From IMG/VR virus record IMGVR_UViG_3300045988_081670: a DNA stretch of 64,000 nt; one strand, written 5' to 3'. The notes under the pieces were generated by a model. It was not told the origin of the DNA. It ran no database searches and saw only the letters and a list, made by a program, of their open reading frames with translations. The translations under genes and the position numbers were made by a program. Every line of letters begins with the position of its first letter. Position 1 is the stretch's first letter. The DNA is from a virus. Positions 26,577 to 60,400 of this stretch are shown here, one piece after another.

Positions 26577-26607
26577 ATATTAAAAATTAAAGTTAATTGT
26601 AGCTCTG

Positions 26608-26655
26608 GCAGGATTCGAACCTGCCAAAAATACCATATAGAGCTTATTCCTCACT
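26608..26655 (-). other. tRNA-like minihelix: acceptor-like stem plus T-arm (GGCAGG TTCGAAT CCTGCC), no D-arm or anticodon arm
   Basis: Minus-strand RNA reads AGCTCTA tatggtattttt GGCAGGTTCGAATCCTGCC AGAGCT a. A canonical T-arm, but no full cloverleaf can be drawn. Confidence 0.3.
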
Positions 26656-26801
26656 ATTAGAAAAGAAAAGTAGACTTAGTGCCAAACCAATACCTAACAT
26701 CTAACTAACAGTTCCAGCGTGTTTAAGCTTCACCCATTTTATCCAAGATGTCGGCCTCTTTCTCCTACTGAGGTTTTCATTTCTAATATTATATAGAAAT
26801 T

Positions 26802-27431
26802 TTAATCACTAAAAGTGATATTATTCATATTGTTACAATAATTAAAATCAATTTCTTTATTATTTACTTTTTTAACTGTTTGCTTTATTACTCCTATACC
26901 AATATCTGGACTTTTAGAGTCAATCCAAAATTCATTATGAGGTAATAGTGGTTTAAGCTTAGTATATTCTATTAAGTTACAATATATTATAGGATATACC
27001 CCAGCCCTCTCACTAAAAAGCTCATTTAATTTTATTAGGTTTTTTATTCTTGATACTTCTGATTCTTCTCCAAAGCCATCCTTTTCATAATCAATACATG
27101 GTAACAAACTTAAAGACATGTCTTCAGTTGCTTTATCATAGTTTTTGTACTGATCTTCGGCAGGGACATCACCTCTAAAAAAATGATAAGCACCTATATA
27201 CAAACTATAATCATATGCTTTATTAAAGTGCTCATACCTTAGAGGGTCTTTATAAGAAGCTCCTTCTGATGCTTTTATAAAAACAAATTTCACATTAGCA
27301 TCTTTAAAGTATTGCCAATCACAATCAGTTATTTTGTTATGGTGTGATATATCTATACCTAATGTTCTAGGTCGATTTGCACAACTTATAAATAGTAAAC
27401 AACAAAGTAATAAATTAATAACTTTTTTCAT
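26802..27431 (-). CDS. GH25-family muramidase (endolysin) with lipoprotein signal peptide
   Basis: N-terminal MKKVINLLLCCLLFISC lipobox. Motifs GIDISHHN, KFVFIKASEGASYKD and GAYHF are typical of GH25 lysozymes. Confidence 0.75.
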   Translation of the reverse strand: MKKVINLLLCCLLFISCANRPRTLGIDISHHNKITDCDWQYFKDANVKFVFIKASEGASYKDPLRYEHFNKAYDYSLYIGAYHFFRGDVPAEDQYKNYDKATEDMSLSLLPCIDYEKDGFGEESEVSRIKNLIKLNELFSERAGVYPIIYCNLIEYTKLKPLLPHNEFWIDSKSPDIGIGVIKQTVKKVNNKEIDFNYCNNMNNITFSD

Positions 27432-27943
27432 CTTATAATACTTCTATCATTATATTTTTTTATATACTAAACTCCACTATTTGAAGGGTCATTTCTATCA
27501 TTTTTACCAGAGGTAAGTTTTCCTCTATTCCAGTATATACTATTAGCATCAGTTTGACTCATAGGAGAACCATCTTTCCATGTATATGAAGGTTTCATGG
27601 TTTGCCTATTATACAATAGTTTTAAGACTGTTGCTTTACCCTACAATGTAGGATTGTTCTTTAAAGAATTTTCATTTATACCATATTTATGATACTAACT
27701 ATTTAATTCTTTCTGCTAAGGGTATATTTTTATCTGTGTAAGACCTCTTGATATTGGAGATACTTTTCCTCTTGTAAGTTTTTGCATTAATTTAAGTCCA
27801 CTATCAGGAATATGTTCTTTTATCCAATATCTTAAACTAGTTCCATTCTTCGTCTCTACTCCAGTTAAATTTACAGCTTGCTTACTTATATTTGCCCAAT
27901 CATTATCCGAAAGATTGTATTTGCGCATCATATTATTACGCAT
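27428..27943 (-). CDS. hypothetical protein, TAG-recoded (4 in-frame TAG). Extends the annotated 75-aa ORF 27716..27943 through its TAG stop
   Basis: The frame continues open for 96 more codons past the TAG at 27716..27718. Further in-frame TAGs sit at 27695, 27641 and 27467. The frame ends at TGA 27428..27430, which overlaps the lysin ATG (ATGA). Confidence 0.7.
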
Positions 27944-28053
27944 ACTATTTACTCCTTGTATAAACTAATGCATGTTATTATTTAGTCTATTAGGATTAAT
28001 AGCAGTAACTGTAACTTCTGGAAGATTATAAGTATTATAATATTTTGTCATTA

Positions 28054-29184
28054 CTAATCCTCCCATCCTCTAGGTGTTCCAGCATCTCTCATAGAAGTAA
28101 TTCCAAATTTTTGACCATTATTACTTCCTAATACTTCATCTAGTAATTCATTATGAATTTTACCGTGTATATTATGTGTAACTCTCCAGTTTTTACCATC
28201 CCAATAGGCATAGCCAACATGTGTAGCTGGAGTTCCTGTGTTCTCCTTTATAGCACTATTATAAAAATCTATCATGTGGGGAGATGTTTTATAATACATA
28301 TTAACTGGATATACGTGATTTTTACGCATCTGTAATTGGTCCAGATTATTTTTAAAGTTGTCTGCTGCTTGATAATGGATATTACGTATTGCCTATAGTG
28401 AATCATTATGATTATAACCGGCCATGTTAGGAGTTAAATTAACACCATCATAACCATTAACAAAATCTTTATAACGTCTTCCCATTTGATAAGCATCTCC
28501 TCCTGCATTAATCCCCATACCTCGTAATTGAGTATTAACGTAAGTTGCACATTCTGGAGTTAAATTACCTAAACGATCGACGGGTTTTTCTGGTATCGTT
28601 AAACCTTTTAATGCTTCTTCTGGAACTCCCTAGGTTGCTAACAATCTTTTAACTGCAATTTCTTCCTATGGAGACGCTTTCTTTTTTGGATAAATAGTCT
28701 AAGCAATTAATCCAGATGCTCCTAGTACTCCAATACCTCCAAGCACTCCTAATCTTTTATTCCTAATGCTCTTTGCCGTATTAGTTATAAAAGGCTTCAT
28801 TGCTTCCTACCTAACCTTTAGAAGGGCTAATTTATTTTCATCCCCTCCAAATTCTCTAGTACCACTTTTGTAAACCTTGGTAGCTTTATCAGGGTTCTCC
28901 TACATCCACTTAAGTTCAGCCTTAGAAGCTGCACTCCTCATGGCTCTTGCATCCCTGATAGCCTATTTCTTTCCTTCGAGATTCGCATCTCTCATTTTCT
29001 AGGTAGGTCTCCAACTACTCTTCTATTGCAATATTTTCTATTTTGCAAGCTTGTTTAATTTCTTTTCAGCTGCAGCTTCTCCTGTGAAAATTCTTCTTAA
29101 TTCATTAGATGCTAACTTAGCCTTATTTACTAACTTACCAAACTAGAGAATTGCTCCTCTCTGTGCTTTATTGATTTGTGTCAT
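28054..29184 (-). CDS. hypothetical virion or late protein, TAG-recoded (11 in-frame TAG, no internal TAA/TGA). The C-terminal 91 aa are the annotated ORF 28054..28329
   Basis: Hand translation from the ATG at 29184 to TAG 28054: MTQINKAQRGAIL*FGKLVNKAKLASNELRRIFTGEAAAEKKLNKLAK*KILQ*KSSWRPT*KMRDANLEGKK*AIRDARAM... continues into ...LQMRKNHVYPVNMYYKTSPH. Confidence 0.75.
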
Positions 29185-29250
29185 TTTTTTTTTCTTTATT
29201 AATATCCGTACTACATTTTTCTCTGATAAATAGAAAACAAACTATTTGGG

Positions 29251-30204
29251 TCATACTGTTGTGCCCAATTTGAAATAGTCCTATTGAAAGCATCCTGGGT
29301 TTGCTGTCCCCCACTTACCATCAGCATTTATTCCAAGTTTCTCTTGAAGTTGCTTGACAGCTTCTGGGCTAGTGTAACCAGCTTTAGCAGCACGATAATC
29401 GAACACACTGTCATAGCCGCTATTATGAGCTTCCATAGTGTCATCAGCCATACCTATAATTTGTCCAGTTTGCTTATCATATATATAACCATTACTGCCT
29501 TGTAGATACTGATCTGGAGTTAGCCAATTTGTTCCGTCGTAGTAATTAGTATTCCCATACCTATCTATTCCGAATCCTTGCTGTTGATTTTCATACTAAC
29601 CAGTTTCCTGATTCCACTCCTGCCAACCATTGTTTGGGTTATACCTATATTGCTATTGAGTCTCCTCTACAGCACTAGGTTGTTTAGAATTTCTTGGAAT
29701 AACTAGATAAGCTCCAGTACCAAGACCACCTACAAGTCCAGTAGCTTTAAGAGTTCTTTTAATACCCCTATTTCTAACCTATCTTAGAGCATCATTCGTA
29801 ACCTGTCTCTTAGTATTATTGAAAGCTTCCTAGGCTTCTCTACTTTTCTATGATGCAGTTATTGCATTTCTTTCAGCTTCATTTGTTTTTCTCGCAGCAT
29901 CATTTACTCTCTTCACATTTCTTTTACTATTAGGCTACTTCCAATTTTTAGTACTGTCTAATAATTTACTTTCTGCTTGCTAAGCTTCTTTATACCTCTA
30001 AGCTGCAAGATTGTGGCTCATTTCAGCCCCTTTCTAACTGTTTCTTGCAGCAGTTAACTCTGGAGAAGCTTGCCTAATTTTAACTACAGCTCTTTCACCT
30101 CCTCCAATTCGTCTCATCCAATTTCCAAAATAATCTGGGATTACCTAAGCATTGCTTTTTAACCAGTTTAGTCCTTCGCCTATGTATTGTGCTCTCTTAC
30201 TCAT
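29251..30204 (-). CDS. hypothetical Gln/Asn-rich protein, TAG-recoded (12 in-frame TAG)
   Basis: 317 codons open from the ATG at 30204 to TGA 29251 with TAG treated as sense: MSKRAQYIGEGLNWLKSNA*VIPDYFGNW... ending ...*QYRYNPNNGWQEWNQETG*YENQQQGFGIDRYGNTNYYDG. No ORF of 60 aa or more under the standard code. Confidence 0.7.
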
Positions 30205-30206
30205 AT

Positions 30207-31481
30207 TTAATTATTGTTAGATAAATTTATCATATAACTGCTATGTGCATAAGGGTATAGTGCCATAGCTGGATCTGAAGCCATAAGTCCATGAAACGCA
30301 GCCTGTCCTGCACTTACAAATCTACTACCAATTCCTTCCGCTCCTCCTAATCTCTTAGGGGCTAATGCCTTTCTTGCAGAGTTAAGTGCACTTCCAGCCT
30401 AGTAAAGGTTAGCAGCTCCTGGTGTATGAGACATCATAGGTCTCCAATTGTTTTTTAATGTAGTTTTTACACCATCTCGCATCATTCCAGAGGCTCCTGA
30501 TCTAAGTCTAGAGACTCCTCCCTTCATTCCTTTAGTTCCGAGGAGAGCCATAGCAAAATTAGCTTCATCATTGAAATTCTTTCTTTGTTGCTCATCTAGT
30601 CCAGTCCAGGCAAAATTCTTATCAGCAAATCCCTTATTTCTGGGATCATCTGGTAGTATTCCTTTCTCTCCTGGAGCTAAGAAACTTCTGATGGAGTTAA
30701 TATCCTTACCTAGATCTAAATATTGTCCTAGCTTGCCAGCTTCTCTCTCAACCTTCTAAGGAAGTAAAAGTTGTAGTGCAGTTCCAATAGTTCCTCCTAG
30801 AATAGCATTTCCAGTTCTGGAAACGTCTCCGAGAGTATCATTGAATCGCGCCCAACCACCTGTATTTCGTTTCGGTTCTAACACACTCTGGGGAACATTA
30901 TCATACATTCCACTTCTTCTAGCATATCCTTTTTTCCAAATATCAGAAATTGACTTAAAGGAATCAACAAAGTTTTCCACAGCACTATCCCAGTTACCGT
31001 CCCAAGCACCTTTCTTGAAAGGATTTAGATCACTCCAACTAAATTCATCAGGATCCTCAGCAGAAGTCTATGATTTCTGTCGTGCTCTATAAGCCTGCAT
31101 AGCTTTATTCTTTGTATCTTGATTTAGATAGGTATCTTTATTATTGAAAGGATTTCTCTGTGTATAGCCAGTTGCTGTCTTTCTAGCTCCTGCTGCCTTT
31201 GCATTTTCCTCTATTCTAGAAGCTGCTTCATCCCAAGTAGCAGTTCTTCCTTCTCTAGAAGATTTAACATCATTGAAACGCCAGCGTCCATTCTAGAATA
31301 TGTTTCCATTTCTAGTATTCATGGAGACTCTATTTGCATAATCTTTACCATATTTACTGGCTAAATATCTCCAGGCAGACCCAGTTATAGCCTACCCTTT
31401 CTAGGCAATCTTGTTGCCATTTACATCTCGGTAATATCCATCTTTACCGAGCCACAATTTACTCATATTAAAATCAGCCAT
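30207..31481 (-). CDS. hypothetical Gly-rich protein, TAG-recoded (6 in-frame TAG). Contains the annotated 74-aa ORF 30756..30980
   Basis: 424 codons open from the ATG at 31481 to TAA 30207: MADFNMSKLWLGKDGYYRDVNGNKIA*KG*AITGSAWRY... reading through TAG 30756..30758 into ...QKVEREAGKLGQYLDLGKDINSIR.... Confidence 0.7.
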
Positions 31482-31519
31482 TTTCTTCTTTTTTTTTTTA
31501 TGTTTACAGGAACAGGTAG

Positions 31520-31595
31520 TACCTCCTAGTGGATTCGAACCAACAGTTTCACTAATATAGACTTTGTTAAACTTCTACCACTGATATAAGGAGGT
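31520..31595 (-). tRNA. candidate amber-suppressor tRNA (anticodon CTA), non-canonical features
   Basis: 76 nt: ACCTCCT TA TATCAGTGGTAGAAGTTT AACAAA GTCTATA TTAGT GAAACT GTTGG TTCGAAT CCACT AGGAGGT A. Perfect 7-bp acceptor, D-loop AGTGGTAGA, canonical T-arm. The best anticodon helix puts CTA at positions 34-36 with U33. An alternative fold gives GTC with A33. It lies 38 nt upstream of the recoded gene block. Confidence 0.45.
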
Positions 31596-31775
31596 AATCT
31601 AGTTAGTTATACTCCAACTAGAAATGAGTTTAGGTTATTTTCACTGGTTTTATTATAACATTCCATTATCCCAGCACCTATCGTATGTTCTTTCTCTTTC
31701 TAACCTAAATGATTAATTTTAAGGTAATTTACGATATTTAAACGAGTCAGTGAGAGATGTTTGTTACCTAAAGTT

Positions 31776-32777
31776 TTACTTAATAGTAACTATTGCTACA
31801 CGACCACTAGTAGTGTCAGTAACACCAGTTCCAATACAATTCTCTACGATTACACCATTTCCAGTTAAGAATTTGGAAACAGCTTCTGCACGTTTCTCCG
31901 ACAACTTCTGATTGTAATTAGAGGAACCTTCTGGAGATGCAGAACCAATAATGCTTACCTTAGAACCAGATGGAATCTTAGACAATTTAGACATAGCGGT
32001 TCCAGTAAGTTTTGCAGAATTTTGTGCAAAGAAAATCACTGTGTTACCAACTGTATTAGTAACAACTTCGGTCTTAACGACTTCCTTTATAATTTCCGTA
32101 GGTTTCTTTGCTAAATCCTTCTTAAGAGAATTAATTTCATTGTTCATTGATGTAATATCATACGTCTTAAAACTTCTTGTACCATTAGAAGTCTTAAAGT
32201 GGTATACCCATCCAATTAAGACACCAAGCTGAGCATAATTCTTATTGAACTCTACATGACCTGTCTTGTTTAGATTCCAGTATACTGCAGGATTAACTAT
32301 AATTGAGTGAGCCTTCTCCTTACCTAGATTGAATGACAATACCGCTCCAGTTTTAGAGGTAATATAGTTACAGTGTCCTGTCCAACTATGCAGCCAGCCA
32401 ATACCAGTCTCAGTGCTTACTTCAAACCTCCGAGGGGTTCCATTATATCCGCACAGCAGGTTAGAGAAGTTAATAACTCCATTCAATCCAGTATTAATAG
32501 ACCTTACTACAGTAGAAGCACTACCATAGTGATTATCGCCAAAGGAGGCAAGTCCTTCAACGTTAAACCCAAATACAGGAGTAAGGTTCTTCTGCAACTT
32601 AATACCAGCAACTCCATTTACAGGAAATACTGAGTTAAAGTCTAGAGGAGTAGTTACTCCACCTACAACACTAATAGAAGTGTTATCAAGGATTTTAGAT
32701 TCTTCATACGCTGTTTGCGCATAGGTAAAACTACACAGAGTAAACAGCAAACTCATGATGAAAATAAATTTCTTCAT
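31776..32777 (-). CDS. OmpA-family outer-membrane protein (signal peptide, beta-barrel region, C-terminal OmpA-like peptidoglycan-binding domain)
   Basis: N-terminal MKKFIFIMSLLFTLCSFTYAQ signal peptide. C-terminus NSAKLTG...IIGSASPEGSSNYNQKLSEKRAEAV matches OmpA_C motifs. Confidence 0.7.
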   Translation of the reverse strand: MKKFIFIMSLLFTLCSFTYAQTAYEESKILDNTSISVVGGVTTPLDFNSVFPVNGVAGIKLQKNLTPVFGFNVEGLASFGDNHYGSASTVVRSINTGLNGVINFSNLLCGYNGTPRRFEVSTETGIGWLHSWTGHCNYITSKTGAVLSFNLGKEKAHSIIVNPAVYWNLNKTGHVEFNKNYAQLGVLIGWVYHFKTSNGTRSFKTYDITSMNNEINSLKKDLAKKPTEIIKEVVKTEVVTNTVGNTVIFFAQNSAKLTGTAMSKLSKIPSGSKVSIIGSASPEGSSNYNQKLSEKRAEAVSKFLTGNGVIVENCIGTGVTDTTSGRVAIVTIK

Positions 32778-33130: not shown

Positions 33131-33418
33131 TCATTCTAAAATACCATACCCAAATCCTAATCTAGTTATTAAATACTTACCCAAATTTTTCATTTTTTTA
33201 CGCAATCTTGATATAGTAGTATCTACAGTTCTTAAAGAAACTTTAGAATTCCATACATTATTAAGAATTTCCTGTCTGGAATGTATCTTATTCTTATTCT
33301 TTATAAGAAATTCAAGGAGATTAAATTCATTCTTTGTAAGGTTGATTTCTTCTCCCCCTATAGTACATACCTTTATGTCTAAATTGAGATTTAGTTCCTT
33401 AAATACTAGTTCATTCAT
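33131..33418 (-). CDS. standalone OmpR/PhoB-type winged-helix DNA-binding protein
   Basis: 95 aa. LTKNEFNLLEFLIKN...RQEILNNVW...RTVDTTISRLRKKM...ITRLGFGY matches the Trans_reg_C effector domain. No receiver domain. Confidence 0.7.
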   Translation of the reverse strand: MNELVFKELNLNLDIKVCTIGGEEINLTKNEFNLLEFLIKNKNKIHSRQEILNNVWNSKVSLRTVDTTISRLRKKMKNLGKYLITRLGFGYGILE

Positions 33419-44511: not shown

Positions 44512-45036
44512 TTATACCATTTCCTTTAATAGTCCAGTATAGTTTGGATGACTAGCATATCCAATTCGATTTAGAAAGGCATAATAACTACCTCCACTAT
44601 ATCTATTAGATATACATTTCTTATAATCCTCTACACATTCTGTCCAATGGGAATATCGTCTATAACGGTTCCCCTTCTTAAGTCCAAAAATATTCTGATG
44701 AGTACGAACTAAGTTAGACTTAAAATTACCTGTTTCAAGCTTAGCTTGAGCTAGAACAATGTTTGCGTGAGGTATATTGTTCTTAATGAGCTCTTCTTTC
44801 AAATTAGTCTCATTAAGAACTTTTGATTTAGCAACTGGTTTCATCTGAGCAACTTTAACATTTTTGTCCTTAGATGTAACCTTTGCTGAATCATTTACCA
44901 TCTCAATACGGATAGTATTTTCAGATGGTTTAGGAGTATTCTTTGGTGCTGAAATTAGAGTAACTACAACACCAATAATCAATCCAATTAATAAGTAACA
45001 AAGTCTGTTTGTAATATCATTTTCATTAATCTTCAT
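44512..45036 (-). CDS. peptidoglycan hydrolase, glucosaminidase (FlgJ/LytD-like) with N-terminal TM anchor
   Basis: NIVLAQAKLETGNFKSNLVRTHQNIFGLKKG matches the Glucosaminidase family core. Confidence 0.65.
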   Translation of the reverse strand: MKINENDITNRLCYLLIGLIIGVVVTLISAPKNTPKPSENTIRIEMVNDSAKVTSKDKNVKVAQMKPVAKSKVLNETNLKEELIKNNIPHANIVLAQAKLETGNFKSNLVRTHQNIFGLKKGNRYRRYSHWTECVEDYKKCISNRYSGGSYYAFLNRIGYASHPNYTGLLKEMV

Positions 45037-47312: not shown

Positions 47313-49055
47313 TCACGAACCAGTATAAATTATATACTTTTTACGTTTATGCTTAGTTACACTAAGCTTTATGATTCTTACTCTGTTAAGTAGCTCCTGA
47401 TCCATTGCTGTCAAGAACAACTCTTCTGCATTCTTAGGAGCCTTAAGTTCAGGTTTATTACCTCCTAAGATAAATGCCACAGCACTTGGGTCATAGCCAG
47501 ACATATAGAAGAAATTAGGAGCATCTGCAAAGTCTTCAAACTTTACCTTGTTATCATAACCGTACCATCCATTAGGAATATCCCAAAGGATAATCTTAAA
47601 GGAATTAACGTATTCCTCACTAAATCCAGCCTCACGAAGTCTCCTAATTGCAAGTTGGAAATTTGTAGATTTGTTAGTACCACGTCTATCAAATTCTCCA
47701 TCACTTACGCAAAGGATTCCACTTGGGAAATCCTTTTCCTCAACTCCTTCTGATTTTAATCTTATAAAGAGATCAATTACAGATTGGAAATTAGTATTTG
47801 CGTAAGCACCGCAATTATCATTGATGTACTTATCAATAGGAGTTTCTCCCTTCCATTTATGTAACGTACATCCGTCAGAAAACTCTGCAAATGTATCCGC
47901 AAAGTATCCTTCTAAGAACTCAGAGAAATACAATGCCATAGATTTAGCAATGCAGAATGAAGATACATTACAGCCTCTAGCTGTTGAAGTCATTGAGCCT
48001 GAAGTATCTCGTACTACAAGTAGTGAGGACTTAGCGTTTACATTCTCTTTACCTGTTTTTACAAGTTGTGCAAATTGTGCATTAATTGTCTTCTCCTTGT
48101 AATCCGCCATGTGTCGACAGTTTTCATCGAAAGGAGCAAATAGCTCAAACACATATCCTGTGAACTTGGCTACAGGCTTAGAGGAAATCCAATCAGTGTA
48201 CTTCTTAGTAAGATTGTGGTTCTCCAAGAAGTTAGAACCCACCAAGAGAGCTAAAGCTCTACCCGCAATGTGGTCAAAGTTAAGTGAATCGTATAACTGC
48301 TGAGAAATAAGTTGCTGCCATTCATGAGCAACACCTTCAGACTTAATCTTTCGATAGACCTTATAAGCCGATTCTTTCTCTAATTTAGGAGACAATTTTC
48401 TAGCCAGCCATCTACCTATAAGAGTGTCTGCTTGAGATTCAAGCGTTGTACACTTCTTATTTGTTCTAATAGTTGGCAGATACTTACGAACTAGGTGAGT
48501 TGTATCAGGATTGTTAAGTCCTGCTGACAAAGTCAGATATAGGAAATTCCAATCTAACTTTCTCCCTTCCCACCCATGATATTGTAGGTCTAAAGAGAGC
48601 ATTTGAATAACATCCTTCCATGAGCCTGCTGCAATGAAAAGAGGAAGATTTACTTTAAAGGTTGCAGGTTGGTTAATAGCCAGCCACAACATTCTCATAA
48701 TACCTTCATTCTTCAAGCCCTGTCCACGCTGAACGTCTAGTTCTTCACTTTTGTCTTTAGTAACAATTTTAGACTTACGTGTAATGAGTCTGAAATAGAG
48801 CGCAAGTTTTACACATAGAATGGGATTTGAACCCCATAGAGTTTGCATGTCCTTTGCTACTTCCTCATAAGAACGTGGCTCTTTGAAATATGAAGCAGCA
48901 GCAAAGTTATCAACAAAATCGTTTCCAGTTGTGGAATACTTCTTTGCTCCATTGCCTGACTCAGTTTCAGAAGACACTTTGAGTGCTTGCTTTACAAACT
49001 GATTCTCGACAGGTTTAATGTCAAGAAGTGAATTTACCTTCTTTTGAAATTCCAT
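47313..49055 (-). CDS. vWA-domain protein (MIDAS DTSGSM) with long N-terminal helical region, possibly TROVE/Ro60-like
   Basis: 580 aa. MIDAS motif LLVVRDTSGSMT at about residue 340. N-terminal roughly 330 aa predicted helical. Adjacent to the AAA+ ATPase and flanked by tRNA genes. Confidence 0.5.
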   Translation of the reverse strand: MEFQKKVNSLLDIKPVENQFVKQALKVSSETESGNGAKKYSTTGNDFVDNFAAASYFKEPRSYEEVAKDMQTLWGSNPILCVKLALYFRLITRKSKIVTKDKSEELDVQRGQGLKNEGIMRMLWLAINQPATFKVNLPLFIAAGSWKDVIQMLSLDLQYHGWEGRKLDWNFLYLTLSAGLNNPDTTHLVRKYLPTIRTNKKCTTLESQADTLIGRWLARKLSPKLEKESAYKVYRKIKSEGVAHEWQQLISQQLYDSLNFDHIAGRALALLVGSNFLENHNLTKKYTDWISSKPVAKFTGYVFELFAPFDENCRHMADYKEKTINAQFAQLVKTGKENVNAKSSLLVVRDTSGSMTSTARGCNVSSFCIAKSMALYFSEFLEGYFADTFAEFSDGCTLHKWKGETPIDKYINDNCGAYANTNFQSVIDLFIRLKSEGVEEKDFPSGILCVSDGEFDRRGTNKSTNFQLAIRRLREAGFSEEYVNSFKIILWDIPNGWYGYDNKVKFEDFADAPNFFYMSGYDPSAVAFILGGNKPELKAPKNAEELFLTAMDQELLNRVRIIKLSVTKHKRKKYIIYTGS

Positions 49056-50300: not shown

Positions 50301-51204
50301 TAACATTGACTTCCACTTCCAAAGCACCCCGACTTATTTTCGTGCACCAATTATAAATTGTGAAGCCACCCTCACAGGTATTAAGAAGTTTTCATTTATA
50401 TATTCACTCGACGGGTAAAGTATTAGAATATATAAGTTAGTCTTTGTGGTCTGGACTATTTTATTACCATATTAAAAATCTTGCAAGATATAGCTTCATT
50501 TTCTCCTTCTCATATTGCAAGCTAACAGAGTTTAAGATTCTCTTGCTACGCAACTTAGATTCCACTATAATTTCTAACTTAGGTATCTCCTCTATAGTCT
50601 CTACACATTTATGAACTATAAAACTTTGTATTTAAACTTATTAGTATTTTTTGCCTAGTCTCGGAAAACACTAATCATTTTACAGTATTTCAATTTAGCT
50701 CGTCATCACCAAAATTTATGTCACCATAAATAAGGTTTCTGTCGAATTAGGGAGATTCTACTCTTATAATTTCTTATAAGGCACTCAAATTTTCAAGTCT
50801 GTCGGGTCTACCATTCCCCCATAGAGCCGTCCTTTTTAAAGGAGCTTGTAGGCAGTTTCTATAAACTTATCAATTAAATCATCTCTATAGAAACAATCTA
50901 CACCATAATCAAATTGTACTTTTCTAGCTACACGATATTTAGAATCAATGTAGTTAAATACCTTTTGACCTTCTCTCCAATTGTTTTGAAAAGCCTTAAT
51001 ACCATTAAGGACATCTTCTCTAAATTCTTCGTATGTCATAATTATTATTTTTAAAATGGTCCTGTACGATTTGAGCATTGTTAAGAGGCTTGACAGGAAA
51101 GAAAAAACCTGGCTTCAGGCGGTTTTATCCCTACTTCACTATATCCCAGTAATACCTTAAGAGTACTGATATAGTCCCGGTGTCAAGCTTCAGATTTTAT
51201 TAGT

Positions 51205-51250: not shown

Positions 51251-51504
51251 AGCAGGAGTATTCTCCAATTGAGAATATCCTAGAATTGATCTATTAATCT
51301 TCGTACTTAATGTACGGAATTGTGCAACTTGGAGCCCAAGCATAAGTTTTGGCTGCCAAATTTAAGTACCATTTAATTGCTTTCTTAAGCATCTTCATAA
51401 CCGTAATTAATTTTAGTAAATAATTTAATTTTAAAAAGTTAAACGTATTAGTAAGATTAGCGCAACCCAATTCACACCACGTGGAGGTTCTTACTATGTG
51501 AATC

Positions 51505-51577
51505 TTACGGGAGGAGGATTCGAACCTCCGACCTCCAGCTTATGAGGCTGGCAAGCTACCATCTGCTCTATCCCGCG
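51505..51577 (-). tRNA. tRNA-Met (anticodon CAT), initiator-like with a C1:A72 mismatch
   Basis: CGCGGGA TA GAGCAGATGGTAGCT T G CCAGC CTCATAA GCTGG AGGTC GGAGG TTCGAAT CCTCC TCCCGTA A. Confidence 0.6.
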
Positions 51578-51704
51578 ATGTTAAAAAGGTATCAGGCGAT
51601 TAGATAGACTCACGCAACGACTATGTTCCTTACAAACAGTTCGCTATCTTTATGATTGGAGGGCATTGTCTAAATTAACCTTGTTTGCAGTTTCTATACC
51701 TTTG

Positions 51705-51778
51705 TGAGTTTAATAAGACTCGAACTTATATCTTGCGGCTTAACTAGCCGCTGCTTTATCCTATTAAGCTATAAACTC
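51705..51778 (-). tRNA. tRNA, anticodon loop TAGTTAA (GTT, Asn-like, with A33)
   Basis: GAGTTTA TA GCTTAATAGGATAAAGC A GCGGC TAGTTAA GCCGC AAGAT ATAAG TTCGAGT CTTAT TAAACTC A. Perfect acceptor stem but A33. Confidence 0.45.
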
Positions 51779-51886
51779 TGTGTTCTCATGCATAAGAACA
51801 CACGACTACTTTCACCTATGCGTCCGTCGGTTCATTGTCTTTACGGTAGGTCTGCGCAGCCCGCTGCCATAGGTTATCCTTGTCAA

Positions 51887-51960
51887 GTAGCGGAAGTAGG
51901 GTTTGAACCTACGACCTCCACATTATCAGTGTGGTGCTCTAACCAACTGAGCTATTCCGC
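51887..51960 (-). tRNA. tRNA-Ile (anticodon GAT)
   Basis: AGCGGAA TA GCTCAGTTGGTTAGAGC A CCACA CTGATAA TGTGG AGGTC GTAGG TTCAAAC CCTAC TTCCGCT. Confidence 0.75.
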
Positions 51961-52079
51961 TGTTTAATCTCTTCTTTATCGTGTAGAGACTTAGGAACAC
52001 GTGTAGCCAGAAAGCTATCCACACACGATTCTCACGAACAGTAGTACTACTATTTGATATACGTTTATTTATCACCCGG

Positions 52080-52165
52080 TGTTCCCTATGGGATTCGAAC
52101 CCATGACCCCGAATTTAAAAGATTCGTGCTCTCTAGCCTTACGGAACCAACTGAGCTAAGGGAAC
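52080..52165 (-). tRNA. tRNA-Lys (anticodon TTT) with a roughly 10-nt insertion in the D-loop
   Basis: GTTCCCT TA GCTCAGTTGGTT[CCGTAAGGCT]AGAGAGC A CGAAT CTTTTAA ATTCG GGGTC ATGGG TTCGAAT CCCAT AGGGAAC. Confidence 0.55.
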
Positions 52166-52520
52166 AAATGACGTAGGAGTTTCTAGTTTTATTCTCAAAC
52201 CACTAGAAGGTCTCCTACGTGTTACTCTTTACGAGCCTGGCATCAATTTGGGATGATGTTCAGTCCTCAGCATTTTCTTGTTGAAAATCAACAAAAGTCA
52301 CTAGTTTATGGATTACTAGAAACCTGAGAATGTGAAGGTACAAAACTCTAAGAGAGGAAACTTCGCTTCAATGTTTTTACAGTAATCTTTCCATTTTAAA
52401 GTGCACCAGTTTCTATAGGAAAGACATAACTCTTCTAGCCTAGGACTCATAGAAGGGCTAAGGAAATTATCCAGTACCGACTGGAACTACATTCTTACTG
52501 ACACTTATAAAGATTATGTG

Positions 52521-52619
52521 ATTTATATTATGGTACTCCCAGTGAGACTCGAACTCACACGAACATTACTGTTCATCAGATTTTAAGTCTGACTTGTCTA
52601 CCAATTCCAACATGAGAGC
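52521..52619 (-). tRNA. tRNA-Leu (anticodon TAA), CCA encoded
   Basis: GCTCTCA TG TTGGAATTGGTAGAC AAG TCAGA CTTAAAA TCTGA plus long variable arm TGAG TTCGAGT CTCA C TGGGAGT A CCA. Confidence 0.7.
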
Positions 52620-52782
52620 TTGAATACAAGATACTTACGTTCTATAGACTGTAGAAACTCCTGATATGCTGCATAGCATCACATAACAATGGAGCTATCT
52701 TGTATCATGCTTGAAATTACATACCCTATACGGAAAAGAGCGACTCGCTCCACCAATTAAGGATTTTTTTTTTCGTTATTGT

Positions 52783-52858
52783 TGTGAGTGTAGGAGTCGA
52801 ACCTACTATCGTACAGATTATGAGCCTGACATGATTTACAAATATCCGTTTCACTCCC
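52783..52858 (-). tRNA. tRNA with CAT anticodon (Met or Ile2), weak D-arm
   Basis: GGGAGTG...TCAGG CTCATAA TCTGT...TAGG TTCGACT CCTA CACTCAC A. One acceptor mismatch. Confidence 0.4.
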
Positions 52859-53039
52859 TCACGATATATTGTTTAAAGAATTTTCGGCGGAGGCAGATCC
52901 TTAAGTACCATCACCGGGGATACATTTTATCAGTTTCTTCTAGTCTTCTACGTGCTATATTATGAGGTAGCGCTACTTCTCCTTTCAACGTTCCATGAAC
53001 TAAAGTACTCCTTAGGTACAGCCTCCATGTTTTAATATT

Positions 53040-53116
53040 TGGTGGGCCCAGAGAGGTATGATCTCCCGACCTTGTCATTATGAGTGACCTGCTCTGACCA
53101 ACTGAGCTATGGGCCC
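53040..53116 (-). tRNA. tRNA with CAT anticodon (likely Ile2, lysidine type, or Met), CCA encoded, unusual T-loop ATCATAC
   Basis: GGGCCCA TA GCTCAGTTGGTCAGAGC A GGTCA CTCATAA TGACA AGGTC GGGAG ATCATAC CTCTC TGGGCCC A CCA. Confidence 0.6.
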
Positions 53117-53683
53117 ATAAGCACATCTCTCGATGTGCATGCCTTAGTATATTCCACCTAAGTGTTTAGAGACCTTGCAAGTTGGAATTAATCCATACAC
53201 ACAGTGTCAACCGAAGCAGTATCTGCATTAATAGTATCTACCTGAGCAGTATCAGTACTGTCATTATCAGCGTTAGCTGAGTTAGTAGAATTTCCACATG
53301 AAGCAAACATTGCTCCAAACATCAATACAGATGCAAAAATTAACTTTTTCATTTTCATAAAATTTAATTAAACATTTAAGTTATCTATGCTATTCTAAAT
53401 ATATATTTAATGTTGGCGGTGGCAAAAGGATTCGAACCTTAAATCTCTTGCGCCATGCAAGTATTTTACGAGTAAACGATAATCTTTTTATTCTCAATGT
53501 ACTAATAATACAAAAATAATACAATATTATATGCTTGCTTTTATATTATATTTACATTACTTCCCATAGATATTTATTGCGATTACCATTATAATAACTC
53601 CACCTATTTTAAACTATACCACCAAAGGATGCTATACTATTCTCACGAACCATGTAGCGCAAAAGTTTTAATTAAACTATAAG

Positions 53684-53754
53684 TTGGACTACCAGGATTC
53701 GAACCTGGAAAAACAGCGCCAAAAACTGTTGTGTTACCGTTACACCATAGTCCA
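53684..53754 (-). tRNA. tRNA-Gln (anticodon TTG)
   Basis: TGGACTA TG GTGTAACGGTAACAC AACAGT TTTTGGC GCTGTT TTT CCAGG TTCGAAT CCTGG TAGTCCA. Confidence 0.6.
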
Positions 53755-53902
53755 ATAAAGTAGAACTACCTTCACAGGCAATTCTACTAAAACAAAGTTA
53801 TTAACCATAAAAAGTATATGTATTTTGTTAACCACTCTTGATTAAACTAATATATTATCGGTAGTGGGACAACGTGGAATCGAACCACAATCTCGGGATT
53901 GT

Positions 53903-53974
53903 GGGGAAGGACAGATTTGAACTGCCGACCATCTGATCTTCAGTCAGACACTCTACCACTGAGTTACTTCCCCG
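53903..53974 (-). tRNA. tRNA-Phe (anticodon GAA). A 42-nt T-arm-containing fragment plus an 8-bp hairpin follows at 53866..53902
   Basis: GGGGAAG TA ACTCAGTGGTAGAGT G TCTGA CTGAAGA TCAGA TGGTC GGCAG TTCAAAT CTGTC CTTCCCC A. The downstream fragment reads CAATCCCGAGATTGTGGTTCGATTCCACGTTGTCCCA. Confidence 0.7.
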
Positions 53975-54383
53975 CATTCTTACCACTAAAATTATCTGTT
54001 TGCGAATGACAGTTTGGACACAAGAAAGTTAAATTCTCTAGTCTATTATCCCTGTTATTCCCATTAATATGATGTAACTGTAAGGTTAATAGTTTTCCAT
54101 TCCATTCAGTTATTCCACAGTTAGAACACTTATACTCTATTAAGTTCGCTTTAATTAAGCGTTTTTTGAACTTAGTCATGTTGGAATATGTGGAATTTTC
54201 AACCATTATATCTTCCAAAGAATATTTAGTATTATCAGATGTACCATGTGCTCTACCTAAGAAATGTGAGAAATCTATATTGTTCTCAATTAAGTAATCT
54301 TTTAATCCTTTGAAAGAATTTCCTCTATTTGCAGTATAACCTAATTTCCTCATTAGTTCCGAAAATGTTATACTTTCATTCAC
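53964..54383 (-). CDS. HNH homing endonuclease (embedded in the tRNA array)
   Basis: CSNCGITEWNGKLLTLQLHHINGNNRDNRLENLTFLCPNCH is an HNH motif with flanking Zn-binding Cys pairs. Confidence 0.8.
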   Translation of the reverse strand: MNESITFSELMRKLGYTANRGNSFKGLKDYLIENNIDFSHFLGRAHGTSDNTKYSLEDIMVENSTYSNMTKFKKRLIKANLIEYKCSNCGITEWNGKLLTLQLHHINGNNRDNRLENLTFLCPNCHSQTDNFSGKNAGK

Positions 54384-54636
54384 TAATTTGGTAAGTTCTT
54401 CTATAGAAACCTATTTGTATTTACATATCATATTAGTAATTTTAGTTAAATTTCCGCGCTCTGACCTTCTAAGCTATTGTCCCAATTCGCTAGAAAATCT
54501 ATTCACATAGACTTCCTAGCTTGCATATTGTGCCTACAAAACAAAGTATCCACGATAAATGAATAGACCAGAGTAGACTCTACGTATGAGTGTAGAGTTT
54601 ACAGGAATAACATTTATGTGTGTAAATTTGAGGAGT

Positions 54637-54710
54637 GGAGCTGATGGGGAACGATCCCACAACCTCCTGCTTGCAAAGCAGGTGCTCTAGCCAATTGAGC
54701 TACAGCCCCA
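54637..54710 (-). tRNA. tRNA-Ala (anticodon TGC), unusual T-loop ATCGTTC
   Basis: GGGGCTG TA GCTCAATTGGCTAGAGC A CCTGC TTTGCAA GCAGG AGGTT GTGGG ATCGTTC CCCAT CAGCTCC A. Confidence 0.65.
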
Positions 54711-55005
54711 GTGCTAGAATTTATCCTAATATTTTATTCTAATGGGTCTAAATTTCCGACACATGATTCATAACTTTCTTTACCATCAGAATCTCTTGTA
54801 ACAAAGTAATAGTCTTCATTAGTCTCGGACATTCCAATAAGAGTTACCTCTTTTCCTCTGAAATCCTTATATTTATCACCAATATGAGCTGTAAAATCCT
54901 TAAACCATTCTGGTAAATCTTCTCTATCTTTTACTTCATTAAAAGAGGAATAGATCTTTTCCCATTTTATATACCCATCCTTGTTATATTCTTTATATTC
55001 CATAG

Positions 55006-55079
55006 CGCACCCTGCAGGACTCGAACCTGCGACTTTCTGATTAACAGTCAGACGTTCTAACCAACTGAACTAAGAGTGC
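55006..55079 (-). tRNA. tRNA-Asn (anticodon GTT)
   Basis: GCACTCT TA GTTCAGTTGGTTAGAAC G TCTGA CTGTTAA TCAGA AAGTC GCAGG TTCGAGT CCTGC AGGGTGC G. Confidence 0.75.
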
Positions 55080-55273
55080 AAATCCACTATCGAGTTCCTC
55101 AAGCTCTTGTAATTGAATACAGATAGTGGTGGAAGGTTTCTAGATTACCTTCTAACTGACTATCTTCTGGCGTAGTCACATCCTTCTGTTATTATAGTGT
55201 ACAGATAGCACTGAGGAACGCAAGACCTGGGTAAGCATCAGGTCTCGAAACTAACTTCTGATAAGAAGTAGTG

Positions 55274-55345
55274 TATCGCCAACCAGATTCGAACTGGTGT
55301 TGCGACATTGAAAATGTCGAGTCCTAACCACTAGACGATAGCGAT
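55274..55345 (-). tRNA. tRNA-Glu (anticodon TTC)
   Basis: ATCGCTA TC GTCTAGTGGTTAGGAC T CGACA TTTTCAA TGTCG CAAC ACCAG TTCGAAT CTGGT TGGCGAT A. Confidence 0.7.
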
Positions 55346-55653
55346 AAAAGCAGAGTACAAACGAAAGGTATTTTTAGCAAAATAAGTTTAAATCGTAAAG
55401 TTTGCTGTAAGTACTCTTATTTTATTAAAAATAATATTTAAATGAAATGTCAGATAACAGAACACTTTTGTATTTCTAAAAATTATATAATAAAAATTGC
55501 TGTTAGTGTTCTTATCTATAAGATAAAATTATAAACCATCAGATAGCGTTTTGGTTGTTTATTTACTTCGGACAACCTCCGAATACTCAATTATAATAAA
55601 AATTATGTAAAATAAGTAATTTTGCTGTGCGCTATCTTGTTGGTGAAAAGTAG

Positions 55654-55726
55654 AGTCGTGAATGGGACTCGAACCCACCCATTTAGCTTGGAAGGCTAAC
55701 ATGCTAACCACTAACACCACCACGAC
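55654..55726 (-). tRNA. tRNA-Gly (anticodon TCC)
   Basis: GTCGTGG...TTAGC CTTCCAA GCTAA ATGGGT GGG TTCGAGT CCC ATTCACGAC. Confidence 0.6.
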
Positions 55727-57360
55727 ATAGGTTTTTATTAACTTCTTGTTCTCTCTTGTAAAATTGTATAGCAAAGATAGTATCTATGAAGAAAATTGCA
55801 AAATCAAATTCTGTTAAAATTTGTAAATTGATCTAAGTCAAGTTTTCATCATAAATACTATCTTAGTCTATAAAAGATTATATGTCAAAGACATATCTTT
55901 TGGACACTGACTACAACATCCATGCCATTCTCTCTTAAGAGTTTGATTGCTGCTTGTATATCAGGTCTTTTAAGTATGTCTTTGTGTCTTTTCTTATCAC
56001 GCCATTTATTGTGATATGCATTCACTTTCTTCTGGTATTCCTTATAAATCTCATTAAGCTTATGAAAATGAATAGGCTTATTAGGATTATTAAAGCAATA
56101 CAAGTCATCTCCAACTTGTTTTACAAGCCCAGAGTTGGAAAATGCAGTCCAGAATACTGGATTTGATGGTATTCCACAACTCTTAAACCCTTCTCGGATT
56201 GTATCACTTGTAAAAGGAGTTTTAGCCAGCTGATGGCGCAACGTATTTAATCCTACGATATGCGCCTCAGCGTCAAACTTCTTAGCCATTGATCTCCGCA
56301 TTATAGAGGTTTCGCATTTCTTCTACTAAGTCTGAGCACCAATCTATAGTGCGACCGTGATACTTAGAGAATAAATCCACGCCAAAGAAAGTTCTAGGCT
56401 GGATGTCGTGAATCTGGTTGTTCTTGTCAATTGTAATCTCCAATTCAAATGGGAGATTTACAACAGCCTTCTGCTGATTCTGACCAACCTGTGCATCTTT
56501 GTTTGTAGTGATAATAGCTTTAAAATTCTTTAACATAGAATTTTACCTCCCTAGCGAGGATTTATTAAGTCTAGGAAAAGTTACAGTCTTTGACTGTCAG
56601 TCAGTATAATTTTTCAAGCGGAGCTACTATTATTCACTCAAAACTATACAAAACTAGAAATACTTGTGAGAGTCATAGGTAGCTCTCAAGTTCACCTTTT
56701 TATTTAATTGAGAGGTGTAACTCAATTCTTTAGGAGCCTACTTTTTACACATCTTCTCAAAGACTTCTCTGAGAAGTTTGTTAGCATCCTCTTTGGTAAG
56801 ATGATTCCTCGTTTCTTTCATCTCCCTTTCAATTTCAGAAGATTTTGAGAGCATCTGTCCCATTTGTATGCTAATAGTAGCGTACCCTGCTAAAACTGAT
56901 GCAATAACCATTCTCTGCACTTCCTCAGGGAGCTCTTTAACACTCTCTTTAAAGCTACGGGTATCGCAGACAAGACCCTTTGCCACGGCTGAAGTTGCCT
57001 TATCTACAACCTCAGAACTGTACATTTTGTTTTCTTTTTCCATTTTTTTTTTCTTTAGTTAACTATACCAAATTTCTGGAATGTTTATCATTTTATTATA
57101 TGATTACAATTACTTCTATTTCAACTGCTGAGATTTGAATGTAAGATGTTCTAATTGCTGCAAGAAGTTTGAGCGAAGCTTTAAATCCCTGATGGTCTTC
57201 TATTTTTACTGCAGACTTTGCAACCTCGGTTACAAATTCTATTGCCTCTTCCTTAGAAAGAGTGCCGACTATTGATTCTCCGTTTGAGAAGAACTCAATA
57301 CCATTTGAACATTCAAAAATCTTTTTCATTTCTTTTCGTTTTTATTATTAATAACTGGAG

Positions 57361-57431
57361 ACTATCTGGGAGTCGAACCCAGGTGACTTAGCCAAGGCAT
57401 AGTATCCTAACCGTTAGATGAATAGTCTCTT
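57361..57431 (-). other. tRNA-like element with perfect acceptor stem (AGACTAT/ATAGTCT), D-loop-like segment and canonical T-arm (CTGGG TTCGACT CCCAG) but no foldable anticodon arm
   Basis: The middle segment ACTATGCCTTGGCTAAGTCACC cannot form a 5-bp stem with a 7-nt loop in any register. Confidence 0.35.
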
Positions 57432-60400
57432 ATAAATGGACACAAGAAATTCTAATAGCCTAAACTCTTATAATAAGGATAATTATTTCTTGCTTTGTTG
57501 AACATAGCACGGATGTTAGAACTTAGAAGTCTTTTATATTGGTCGACAATCATCTCATAAAGACTGAGATTTTCATCTATTCCAAATCCGTTACATCCAT
57601 ACTTATCCTCCCTATGCTCCTCCCAGAATGAAACTGGCTTGGTTACAAGTCCCCATATTCCTCCCAGATAAATCTGGTCAGGAGTCATACTTGAAATATC
57701 TAGTGTTCTAAATACTCCATAAGGACAAGGTCCAATATTCTCATTCTGGAATCCAGCTTCCCATGCATCCTTATGAATGTTCATAAGAGTGATGAGTGTG
57801 TTAGGTCCCTCGATTTTGTCGAGGAATCTCTGTCCTTCTAAACACTGCTTAGTGTAGATAGACATTTGCTTGAGGTTATTCTGAACCTCAGCTTTATGGA
57901 ACAATCTGTTCCAAATGTTATTCTTTCTCATGGTCCTCTAAATCTAAATTTAAAACTAGCAGCCAGATAATTATGCAAGCTGTAAATGCTATTGCTGTGA
58001 AAGCTTCGTGCCATATAAAGACACTAGCCCCTGCTAAGGCACACAAGCACACTAAAATGATTACCATAAGGATTCTTTCGATCTTTTTCATACTTTTCAC
58101 CTTTTATAAGTGAGAATACTTAGTGTACTCTCACTTTGATTATTTTCTTTACTATTCTATTCTTGTTCATAGATTCAAGAATTTGTCTCTCCATTTCCTC
58201 TTTAAAGAGTCCTCTTTTTGCAGTCCTAAACTGATAAGAGATAACAGTTTTCTCACCATCTACATTTATAAGAGTAGCGAGAACTTTAATGTCTGATGTG
58301 ATAAATAACATAATTACTTTGTTTTATTAATTGATTTAAAAAATTCATGTACAAACTCCAAATAGAAGCTTTCAACACTATTGTAACTTTCCTCAGTCAT
58401 TTCATTGACTGTGCACCAATAGTTATTTGCCCTTGATGCAGTAATACAATTGTTTGCTTCATCATAAATGATTTCAAGCATTTTTAACATATTTTCCTTT
58501 TTCATATCTACTTTGTTTTGTTTTGAACCCTATGTGAGTTACAACCTCACTACAATGCTTTTATTTAATAGGGATTTCTTTTCATTGCACAGAATATGCT
58601 ATTGGTGATACTACATTTTCGTAGTCTGCACATATTTCAAGAATTGAAGGAAAATAATCCTTGTTAACTGATTGACTACTCTTTACTGTGTAAATGTAAT
58701 ATCCATATCTATCTCTTTCTATATTAGTAATGGTGAAAGTTACTAAATCTATACTTCCAAACCAATTTCTAACATTAAAGGATTTACTCTTGTTAAGAGC
58801 GTTCATAATCTGTTCTTCAGAAAATTCTTTTGCGGATTTTGCATCAGATAATTTTCTATAATGACCTAATACAAATTCGTCACATGCTTTTACTTTTATT
58901 TCCATTTTTACTTTGTTTTTGTTTGTTCTCACTCTGAGTTCTAACCTCAGTACAATAGTTTTATTTAAGTGAGAATACTTTTTTTTAGGCAGTAACTTTT
59001 ATTCCGTTGTCCCGGAAAGTCTTTGCAATAGTAGTGTTAGGATTAATAATCCCACTCTTAACACTGTCACAAAAATCTTGGAGATTATTTTTAATCATCC
59101 AATCTACTGCCTTTCTCTGCTCTTCTGTAAGAGTCTGTAAAACTTCATTCATAATATTCGTTATTTTTAATATTCTATTTGAAATGCACGTCCCATAAAG
59201 TCATCTAACTCTTTGTCAGACCACGTTTTGAGTTCCTCATAGCTAAAGGACGTATTAGCTGCAAGGAACTCTATTACTTTTTCTCGCATATTGATTATGT
59301 TTTGATTTTAATATAATATCAGTCAGAGTTACTTCCATTTTCTTTTACTCAAAGAAAACCGAAGAACTCCTTCACGAAGAATGCATAAAGAATCGAAGTA
59401 GTTTTATATCGTGCCTCGGATATTGCTCGTCTTTCCGAGCGGTCGCTTTCTTTCAAGTTGTCACATCATCAGTTTATAACCTCGGTTGATGTTGCGGAGG
59501 TAACAATCAAAACAATTAAAACAATTAAAACAATGCTCAAAAGCTTCCTTACAGTTACCGCGTCATTATTTATACTTGTACGTGACTACAAGTTCTGCAA
59601 TTAGTTTCCAATGTGTACTTATAGTGTTACCACGTAAAGGTTTGCAGAATAACACCTAAAATTGACAAGTTTAGAATCCCGTATAGATCCTGCGCACATC
59701 TTGTCATAACGTTTCATTCATTTGCAACTGAATGGTGTCATCGAATTAAGGCCACTGACACTGGACCACCTTGCTATTTAACGTCTTGAATAGGCTAAGT
59801 GTGACGTTGTGTTTTACGGCTAAAACTTACTTTGACTTATAGTCTTTCAACACTGGTGTACGTGCTTCCTAATTTAATAGGTTTGTAAGAAACTGCCGTC
59901 CTCAACATCTTGGAAATACTGAACATAGTATCATGGCTTTTACATCCAATGCAATCCACAAGGTTAGATACTCCTTGCCACACTATGCAATATCTTTTAT
60001 ATTGAGTTTTTTAAAACGAAAATATTAATCAACCCATACACTATTAAATTGATAGCGTATGCTTTCGTTAGTACAAACAACTTCCAACCTTTTATCGTTT
60101 ATAGAAGTGATATAAAAGTTGTTTTCTCTCTCACAATACCACGAGAGAGAAAACATCGCGTTTCTACAATCCGACTTTGTTTCAAAGTCGAATATTATAG
60201 AGTGATGTCCACATACAACTTTAAAGTTGTGTTCTGCTTTAATTTCTCCGATTTTCATAATGTTGTTGTTTTAATTGTTAATCCTGACACTAAATAGTGT
60301 TTCGTCTTAATTTTCAAAGACTCATCAGAGGATTTTTAAAATTGCTCGTCTAGTTCCGAGTTGCCAATCACTCTTTATAGCCGTGATAATTCTACAGTTC

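Follow-up and report, generated by a model that had tools for sequence, protein, structure and literature searches.

We describe a block of four consecutive minus-strand genes at positions 27,428-31,481 of a 64,000-nucleotide stretch of viral DNA (IMG/VR record IMGVR_UViG_3300045988_081670; this whole stretch is called the window throughout the text). Judged from the nucleotide sequence, the amber codon TAG is a sense codon in these genes and most likely encodes glutamine (Gln). In our interpretation, to which we assign a probability of roughly 0.8, the DNA belongs to a gut phage of ~160-175 kb which is similar to the Zeta group of crAss-like phages and has its late genes in genetic code 15 (TAG = Gln). 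The block would be a recoded, cell-wall-directed module amid a standard-code replication and tRNA region.

Reading frames of the recoded block and the assignment of TAG

Counting only TAA and TGA as stops, four consecutive open reading frames (ORFs) were found on the minus strand of 27,428-31,481. They are named g1 to g4 in the order of transcription (Table 1) and contain 34 in-frame TAG in 1,325 codons and no internal TAA or TGA. The start codon of g4 was chosen from independent gene calls in two related contigs, L054 and L094. The first TAG is found at codon 14-29 in each of the four genes, and TAG accounts for 37-57% of the positions in the block that are presumed to be Gln. With the off-frame frequency of TAA plus TGA in the window (0.08 per codon), 1,325 stop-free codons would arise with a probability of ~2e-48. 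As a comparison set, 65 other ORFs of at least 80 amino acids (aa) were defined under the standard code; they span nearly the whole window, and no in-frame TAG was found in their 13,828 codons. The sequence is reproduced in two independent assemblies from other samples. Identity to the window is 100% over 5.5 kb in L055, and with L054 no mismatch was found in 6.8 kb, the sole differences being a CAG deletion in a tRNA gene with the anticodon CUA, tRNA(CUA), and a 3-nt length change in an A-tract before g1. The TAG codons are therefore not assembly errors, an objection that the first-pass annotation of the window, made from the letters alone, had itself raised. Its four TAG-bearing minus-strand frames and its claim that the other long genes of the window including the lysin are TAG-free were both confirmed. 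Of its TAG counts, the 6 for the 425-codon gene was correct, those of g2 and g3 were swapped (true values 11 and 12) and the total of 33 was one short, which is trivial. Its last gene of 172 codons with 4 TAG was placed in the right frame, but from a later ATG; the full g4 has 207 aa and 5 TAG.

The ORFs are under selection. For g1, compared with three relatives, a ratio of nonsynonymous to synonymous substitution rates (dN/dS) of 0.15 was obtained, which is unchanged downstream of the first TAG, with 1.4 in the off-frame control. The positions of TAG have been retained between genomes with differences at 40% of their synonymous sites. In order to read the meaning of TAG, partner codons were counted in well-aligned columns with TAG in at least one genome. 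Gln codons made up 34 of the 61 partners (21 CAA and 13 CAG); the remainder were mostly Glu, Lys and Arg, with 2 Leu, 1 Ser and neither Tyr nor Trp. CAA was the commonest partner despite its distance of two mutations from TAG, so the pattern reflects synonymy with Gln and not mutational proximity. TAG in the block corresponds to Gln, as proposed in the first-pass annotation (code 15), and public gene calls of this phage lineage already place Q at TAG in the block ORFs.

Nine of the 65 standard ORFs of the window end in TAG (stops at 6584, 11755, 35999, 37391, 61773 and others); in several of them a second stop, TAA or TGA, follows after 0-4 codons as a back-up, and the one at 37391 is an intron-boundary artefact. 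Further candidates for recoded genes, at 53964-54764, 56630-57043, 57326-57931 and elsewhere, were rejected as merely upstream or read-through extensions of standard ORFs.

Encoded proteins, related loci and lineage

The genes of the block are tightly packed. A 2-nt spacer separates g1 from g2, the start of g4 overlaps the stop of g3 as TAATG, and the stop of g4 overlaps the start of the downstream lysin gene as ATGA. This last overlap had been noted before, with the overlapping gene taken for the first of the recoded genes; in the order of transcription it is the last. The lysin matches Pfam Glyco_hydro_25 (1.7e-19) and PHROG endolysin families, and its hydrophobic N-terminus carries a lipoprotein-type signal peptide (…LLFISC).

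For g1 to g4 no Pfam or PHROG family was found above threshold, PDB sequence searches likewise gave nothing usable, and tblastn of g1 against the phage collection yielded no match; homologs detected by sequence searches are confined to this phage lineage. One Gly-rich hydrophobic, transmembrane (TM)-like segment is present in each of g1, g2 and g3, and none in g4. In g1 the N-terminal ~146 aa are conserved and the hydrophobic segment lies at residues 224-240. The AlphaFold2 (AF2) model of g1 was poor (predicted local distance difference test, pLDDT, 46), too poor for a structure search; structure prediction made use of database homologs 95-100% identical to the block proteins. The g2 protein consists of a charged N-terminal part, a TM-like segment (154-170) and a C-terminal PG_binding_1-like motif, which in the intact form of 334 aa (L094, L002, L003) scores 22.3 bits, just below the cutoff of 23. 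In the window this motif is truncated by a frameshift, the insertion of one G in the run at 29308-29312 (five G; four in L094), and the ancestral frame stays open to 29199. The five-G allele is common to both independent assemblies, L054 and L055. In g3 an N-terminal helical part and a strong TM segment (145-161) are followed by a papain-like (NlpC/P60-type) domain, in which Cys212, His322, His337 and His340 are invariant; this domain co-occurs with Glucosaminidase and PG_binding_1. The g4 protein shares 82% identity with its ortholog in L048. By its gene content the block is cell-wall-directed, and it looks like a lysis-associated cell-envelope cassette rather than a set of structural genes. 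The structural character hinted at in the first-pass annotation was not borne out; the proteins are membrane-anchored and directed at the cell wall.

The recoded block is present in seven related loci with 4-21 TAG per gene. Three IMG/VR contigs of 170-175 kb carry it with g1 proteins 84-86% identical, and so do the more distant L048, L050 and L052 (4-18 TAG per gene). The ATGA overlap with the downstream enzyme was found in five of the seven loci. Among the relatives the N-terminal (cytoplasmic plus TM) parts of g1 to g3 are conserved and the C-terminal domains are exchanged; the final enzyme is a GH25, a YkuD_2 or an unassigned 165-aa protein, and in L001 g2 and g3 are fused to one 488-aa ORF. 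This modular family of TM-anchored proteins appears to be undescribed. A Trans_reg_C gene lies upstream of the block in every related locus examined that reaches far enough upstream. In the sub-lineage of the window an OmpA-like gene, a structured non-coding RNA (ncRNA) and tRNA(CUA) are inserted between this regulator gene and the block; the OmpA-like gene is absent from L048 and L050, where the block directly follows the Trans_reg_C gene. The number of synonymous substitutions per site (dS) is 0.13 for the OmpA-like gene versus 0.44 for g1, which suggests that the segment of OmpA-like gene, ncRNA and tRNA was recently exchanged.

Recoding is modular. In related contigs the genes beyond the low end of the window, DNA ligase, Thg1, a sigma-70 factor and PolA, are all in standard code. 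Further on, on the opposite strand and ~40 kb from the block, ORFs of 931-1307, 815 and 1520 aa were found with 23-42 TAG each. These loci, outside the window, lie on the same contigs as L001 and L002, whose g1 proteins are 84-86% identical. One of the giant genes is interrupted by a TAG-free LAGLIDADG gene; in L045, where the three ORFs measure 1307, 815 and 1520 aa, the first of these contains a DxDxD motif of the RNAP type (SDYDIDK). The earlier statement that recoding is restricted to the block is thus correct inside the window, but not for the genome as a whole, where, by analogy to the relatives with their 23-42 TAG in each giant gene, recoding most probably is not confined to the block.

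The best matches of PolA are crAss-like phages (43-44% identity), the contigs of the relatives measure 158-175 kb, and nucleotide metabolism and replication are represented by NrdD, dUTPase, DnaB, helicases, PolA and 17 tRNAs. LAGLIDADG and HNH endonucleases are present in the lineage. With this content the phage resembles Zeta-group crAss-like phages; no match to a classified Zeta genome was found in the phage collection, and TerL, the major capsid protein and the portal gene lie outside the window. A group I intron of the window (Table 1) splits a gene whose counterpart in L002, L003 and L094 is a continuous ORF of 410 aa, and the ORF of the 5' exon (37391-38290) ends at a TAG on the intron boundary. 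At the default threshold 17 tRNAs were called in the window, including tRNA-Gln(UUG) at 53683-53754; within the tRNA array an HNH endonuclease ORF (53964-54383, minus strand) is inserted between tRNA-Ala and tRNA-Phe.

Table 1. Coordinates of the recoded block and of further features in the window.
Feature	Position	Strand	Description
g1	30207..31481	-	424 aa, 6 TAG, first TAG at codon 27
g2	29251..30204	-	317 aa, 11 TAG
g3	28051..29184	-	377 aa, 12 TAG, ends with TAG-TAA
g4	27428..28051	-	207 aa, 5 TAG
GH25 muramidase (lysin)	26802..27431	-	209 aa, TAG-free, last gene of the operon-like array
Non-canonical tRNA, anticodon CUA	31519..31595	-	76 nt; 37 nt upstream of the g1 ATG
Conserved structured ncRNA	31630..31772	-	~140 nt, between OmpA-like gene and tRNA(CUA)
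OmpA-domain (peptidoglycan-associated) protein	31776..32777	-	333 aa, standard code; Pfam OmpA 3.7e-09
Trans_reg_C winged-helix DNA-binding protein	33131..33418	-	small; Pfam 1.5e-20
tRNA-like remnant	26599-26694	-	between lysin and next gene; perfect T arm GCAGGTTCGAATCCTGC
Group I intron	36954-37403	-	Rfam 50.8 bits (gathering score 50)
Glucosaminidase-domain protein	44512-45036	-	174 aa, TAG-free, in standard-code region
abiF RNA motif	51060-51097	-	Rfam 50.1 bits (gathering score 37); gene-poor stretch before tRNA array
tRNA array	51500-55730	-	12 tRNA genes within ~4 kb

Candidate suppressor tRNAs and a structured RNA

A gene for tRNA(CUA), overlooked in the first-pass annotation, is present directly upstream of the block, in the window as well as in L001-L003, L052 and L054. 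The acceptor stem, the GG of the D-loop and the T loop are canonical, and the T-stem pairs are compensatory between variants (AGTGG/CCACT versus GATGG/CCATC). An intact form of 79 nt is called by ARAGORN at default settings in L001, L002 and L054; the copy of the window was found at a relaxed threshold only, where it was the sole gene added (-ps95). The block-adjacent tRNA is polymorphic even between near-identical strains, and this particular tRNA(CUA), variable and non-canonical, in front of the cassette appears to be undescribed. A canonical tRNA(CUA) of 72-74 nt is located ~250-320 nt beyond coordinate 64000, as observed in two contigs that are 95% identical to the high-coordinate end of the window (L013:701-772, L014:351-424); at this same position L013 and L014 carry two different tRNA(CUA) sequences. 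The copy adjacent to the block is unlikely to be the only decoder of TAG and perhaps not the main one. With 53-67% identity, an origin of tRNA(CUA) as a recent derivative of tRNA-Gln(UUG) or another tRNA of the window was rejected. Since there is no close phage tRNA, the amino-acid identity of tRNA(CUA) is not readable from its sequence. The remnant at 26599-26694, which has a short acceptor-like helix (AGCTCT/AGAGCT), was also considered as a second tRNA(CUA) of 96 nt and rejected; it was called at a permissive ARAGORN threshold only and its acceptor stem is poor.

The ncRNA next to tRNA(CUA) has no match to an Rfam family. Copies with ~81% identity were found in Lak megaphages, in the crAss-like Burzaovirus (cr124_1, cr7_1) and in many phage contigs of 140-225 kb, and a two-block pattern search gave 38 IMG/VR contigs (8-550 kb) that carry it. 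Its copies lie beside tRNA genes: 24 of 38 are located within ~160 nt 3' of tRNA-Gln(UUG), most of them abutting (19 immediately 3' and 5 more at ~100 nt), and 11 of 38 directly 5' of tRNA-Met. The copies of the present lineage sit 5' of tRNA(CUA). The consensus fold comprises 40 base pairs, 97.8% paired, and is accompanied by 8 compensatory double-change pairs versus 0-2 in slid controls and 0/500 shuffles, with only about three sequence types contributing. The ncRNA is not a divergent suppressor tRNA; its predicted loops contain no CUA and no T-loop motif. A link to Ro60 and Y RNA via the ORF at 47313-49055 was not supported either, Pfam giving only DUF7788 and DUF2828. This ncRNA family of gut phages looks new.

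We also considered, as a speculative and rather improbable idea, that OmpA-like gene, ncRNA and a fast-evolving tRNA(CUA) form a mobile, self-contained decoding cassette. In it the tRNA would be co-transcribed with its lysis genes, the ncRNA would aid the switch of TAG to Gln, and the tRNA variants would tune suppression and lysis timing. If this were true, the ncRNA might, for instance, help to process or charge the tRNA or counteract release factor 1 (RF1), and the CUA/UUA exchange, the 8-nt loop and the T-stem deletion would be natural tunings of suppressor strength.

Interpretation, alternatives and comparison with known phages

For the operon-like array of tRNA(CUA), g1, g2, g3, g4 and GH25 lysin we infer a timing function, a translational coupling and decoding by a phage tRNA(CUA). 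Here, g3 is a predicted TM-anchored endopeptidase with an NlpC/P60-like fold, g2 would be a TM protein with a peptidoglycan-binding motif, and the last gene would encode a Sec-exportable lipoprotein muramidase, which is TAG-free and starts within the last recoded stop. Early in infection the host would read TAG as stop, the block ORFs would abort after 13-28 codons, and ribosomes would seldom get to the coupled lysin start. Later, accumulated phage tRNA(CUA) would decode TAG as Gln, full-length envelope proteins would be made, and ribosomes terminating at the g4 stop could start anew on the lysin ATG that overlaps it. Either the tRNA copy preceding the block or the canonical one past the window end, or both together, could act as suppressor. 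As the lysin carries an export signal of its own, a translational control against premature lysis is plausible.

We are aware of several observations that weigh against this interpretation. The tRNA(CUA) of the window was missed by default ARAGORN because three nucleotides (CAG) are deleted from the T stem on its 5' strand (31543), which weakens the stem, and no Rfam tRNA match was obtained even at E<=10. In its anticodon loop, G-U-CUA-U-A, position 37 is U and not a purine. This copy may be poorly functional or non-functional. In L094 the anticodon of the block-adjacent tRNA is UUA, and the B-type tRNAs of L003, L052 and L099 have an 11-nt insertion, a 4-bp anticodon stem and an 8-nt loop. 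L048 and L050 possess the recoded block without an adjacent tRNA, so the latter is not required for the block. In L003 and L052 a spacer of 15-16 nt, instead of an overlap, separates the last recoded gene from the downstream enzyme. On the protein side, g1-g3 (317-424 aa) gave no match to holin or spanin families in Pfam and PHROG, and g1 and g4 have no assignable function from Pfam and PHROG, nor g1 from AF2. Finally, recoding does not gate every cell-wall enzyme, as the glucosaminidase of the window is TAG-free.

The block might instead encode virion-associated envelope-penetration (ejection) proteins, used at entry and recoded as late structural proteins. Conserved N-termini with exchanged C-terminal domains are a pattern common in virion-associated proteins, and at 317-424 aa g1-g3 are far larger than typical holins or spanins. 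We nevertheless regard this explanation as unlikely, since the block is situated in the replication region, ~40 kb from the recoded giant genes on the opposite strand of the relatives (virion genes were not located), is joined in an operon-like manner to a signal-peptide GH25 lysin or YkuD-type enzyme, and its proteins match no PHROG structural family.

TAG could furthermore stand for a residue other than Gln (Tyr, Leu, Ser, Trp or pyrrolysine), or be read through partially and act as an attenuator. The long variable arm of the B-type tRNA, as in Leu, Ser and Tyr tRNAs, would fit such a residue, as would the low identity (53-67%) of tRNA(CUA) to the phage tRNAs including tRNA-Gln(UUG); the ARAGORN label "Pyl" is given to CUA by convention only. 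This is a highly improbable explanation in view of the partner codons, with 0 Tyr or Trp, 2 Leu and 1 Ser versus 34 Gln. The Pfam annotation of the called genes (~0.5-50 kb of the window) contains no Pyl genes, aminoacyl-tRNA synthetase or release factor, and metaproteomics gave TAG = Gln in other crAss-like phages (PMC9523058). With 5-12 TAG per gene, virtually no complete protein would result from weak read-through, yet purifying selection acts on the full ORFs. A reading of the TAG-rich ORFs as decaying pseudogenes or artefacts of assembly, at which the G-run frameshift of g2 and the deletion in the adjacent tRNA might hint, is refuted by the dN/dS of 0.15, the lack of TAA and TGA in 1,325 codons (P ~2e-48), the conservation of TAG positions across 40% synonymous divergence and the identical sequence in independent assemblies of other samples.

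Recoding of late and lysis genes is already published for such phages, and the concept is not new; the comparison with crAss-like and Lak phages drawn in the first-pass annotation was apt. Borges et al. (bioRxiv 10.1101/2021.08.26.457843) described gut phages in whose late and lysis genes stop codons are recoded, and proposed the lysis-timing hypothesis, to which the switch suggested in the first-pass annotation corresponds; a Jade-type "code change module" places suppressor tRNA, aminoacyl-tRNA synthetase and release factor upstream of lysis genes. In common with the phages of Borges et al., replication genes are in standard code, recoded modules are scattered along the genome, recoding is heavy in lysis-related genes, where TAG is favoured over CAA/CAG, and, as in Jade, a suppressor tRNA lies directly upstream of the recoded lysis genes (here ending 37 nt before the g1 ATG). 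In contrast to Jade, neither a tRNA synthetase nor a release factor accompanies the tRNA among the called genes (~0.5-50 kb of the window). Unlike in the phages of Borges et al., the local tRNA is non-canonical and polymorphic, and the final lysin is TAG-free and translationally overlapped instead of recoded. Compared with a canonical bacterial tRNA, the tRNA(CUA) of the window stays below the Rfam gathering score and has U instead of a purine at position 37.

For the Zeta group, Yutin et al. 2021 (PMC7886860) reported genomes of 145-192 kb with TAG or TGA reassigned in late genes only. The contigs of the relatives fall into this size range and show a forward block of nucleotide-metabolism, replication and tRNA genes, as well as, in the relatives only, a reverse "transcription" block, whose giant genes contain in-frame stops and LAGLIDADG inserts. 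Further traits in common are group I introns, a PolA related to crAss-like PolA and late-gene-limited reassignment, and also in Zeta phages suppressor tRNAs are at times undetectable or apparently idle. In the Zeta phage Lera (PMC12386605) 3 of 4 lysin genes and the holin gene are recoded, with TGA read as Trp there versus TAG as Gln here. Peters et al. 2022 (PMC9523058) validated code 15 by metaproteomics in crAss-like phages of ~100 kb. TAG = Gln, Bacteroidota-type A-rich leaders without Shine-Dalgarno sequence and a lipoprotein lysin are common to those phages and the present one, and they differ in that the lysis-like module here lies within the early region, away from the remaining recoded genes. 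The ncRNA element is likewise shared with code-15 crAss-like phages (Burzaovirus cr124_1 and cr7_1).

For annotation, recognition of code 15 is needed, as gene callers using the standard code fragment the cassette. For phage biology, the block would be another independent case of cell-wall-attacking genes kept behind a genetic-code barrier. What the barrier would guard here is a small module surrounded by early genes. A suppressor tRNA precedes this module and a Sec-exportable lysin free of TAG is coupled to its end; with this layout, the lineage lends itself readily to a test of the published hypothesis of lysis timing. New insight is most to be expected from the ncRNA family and from the naturally occurring variants of the tRNA next to the block.

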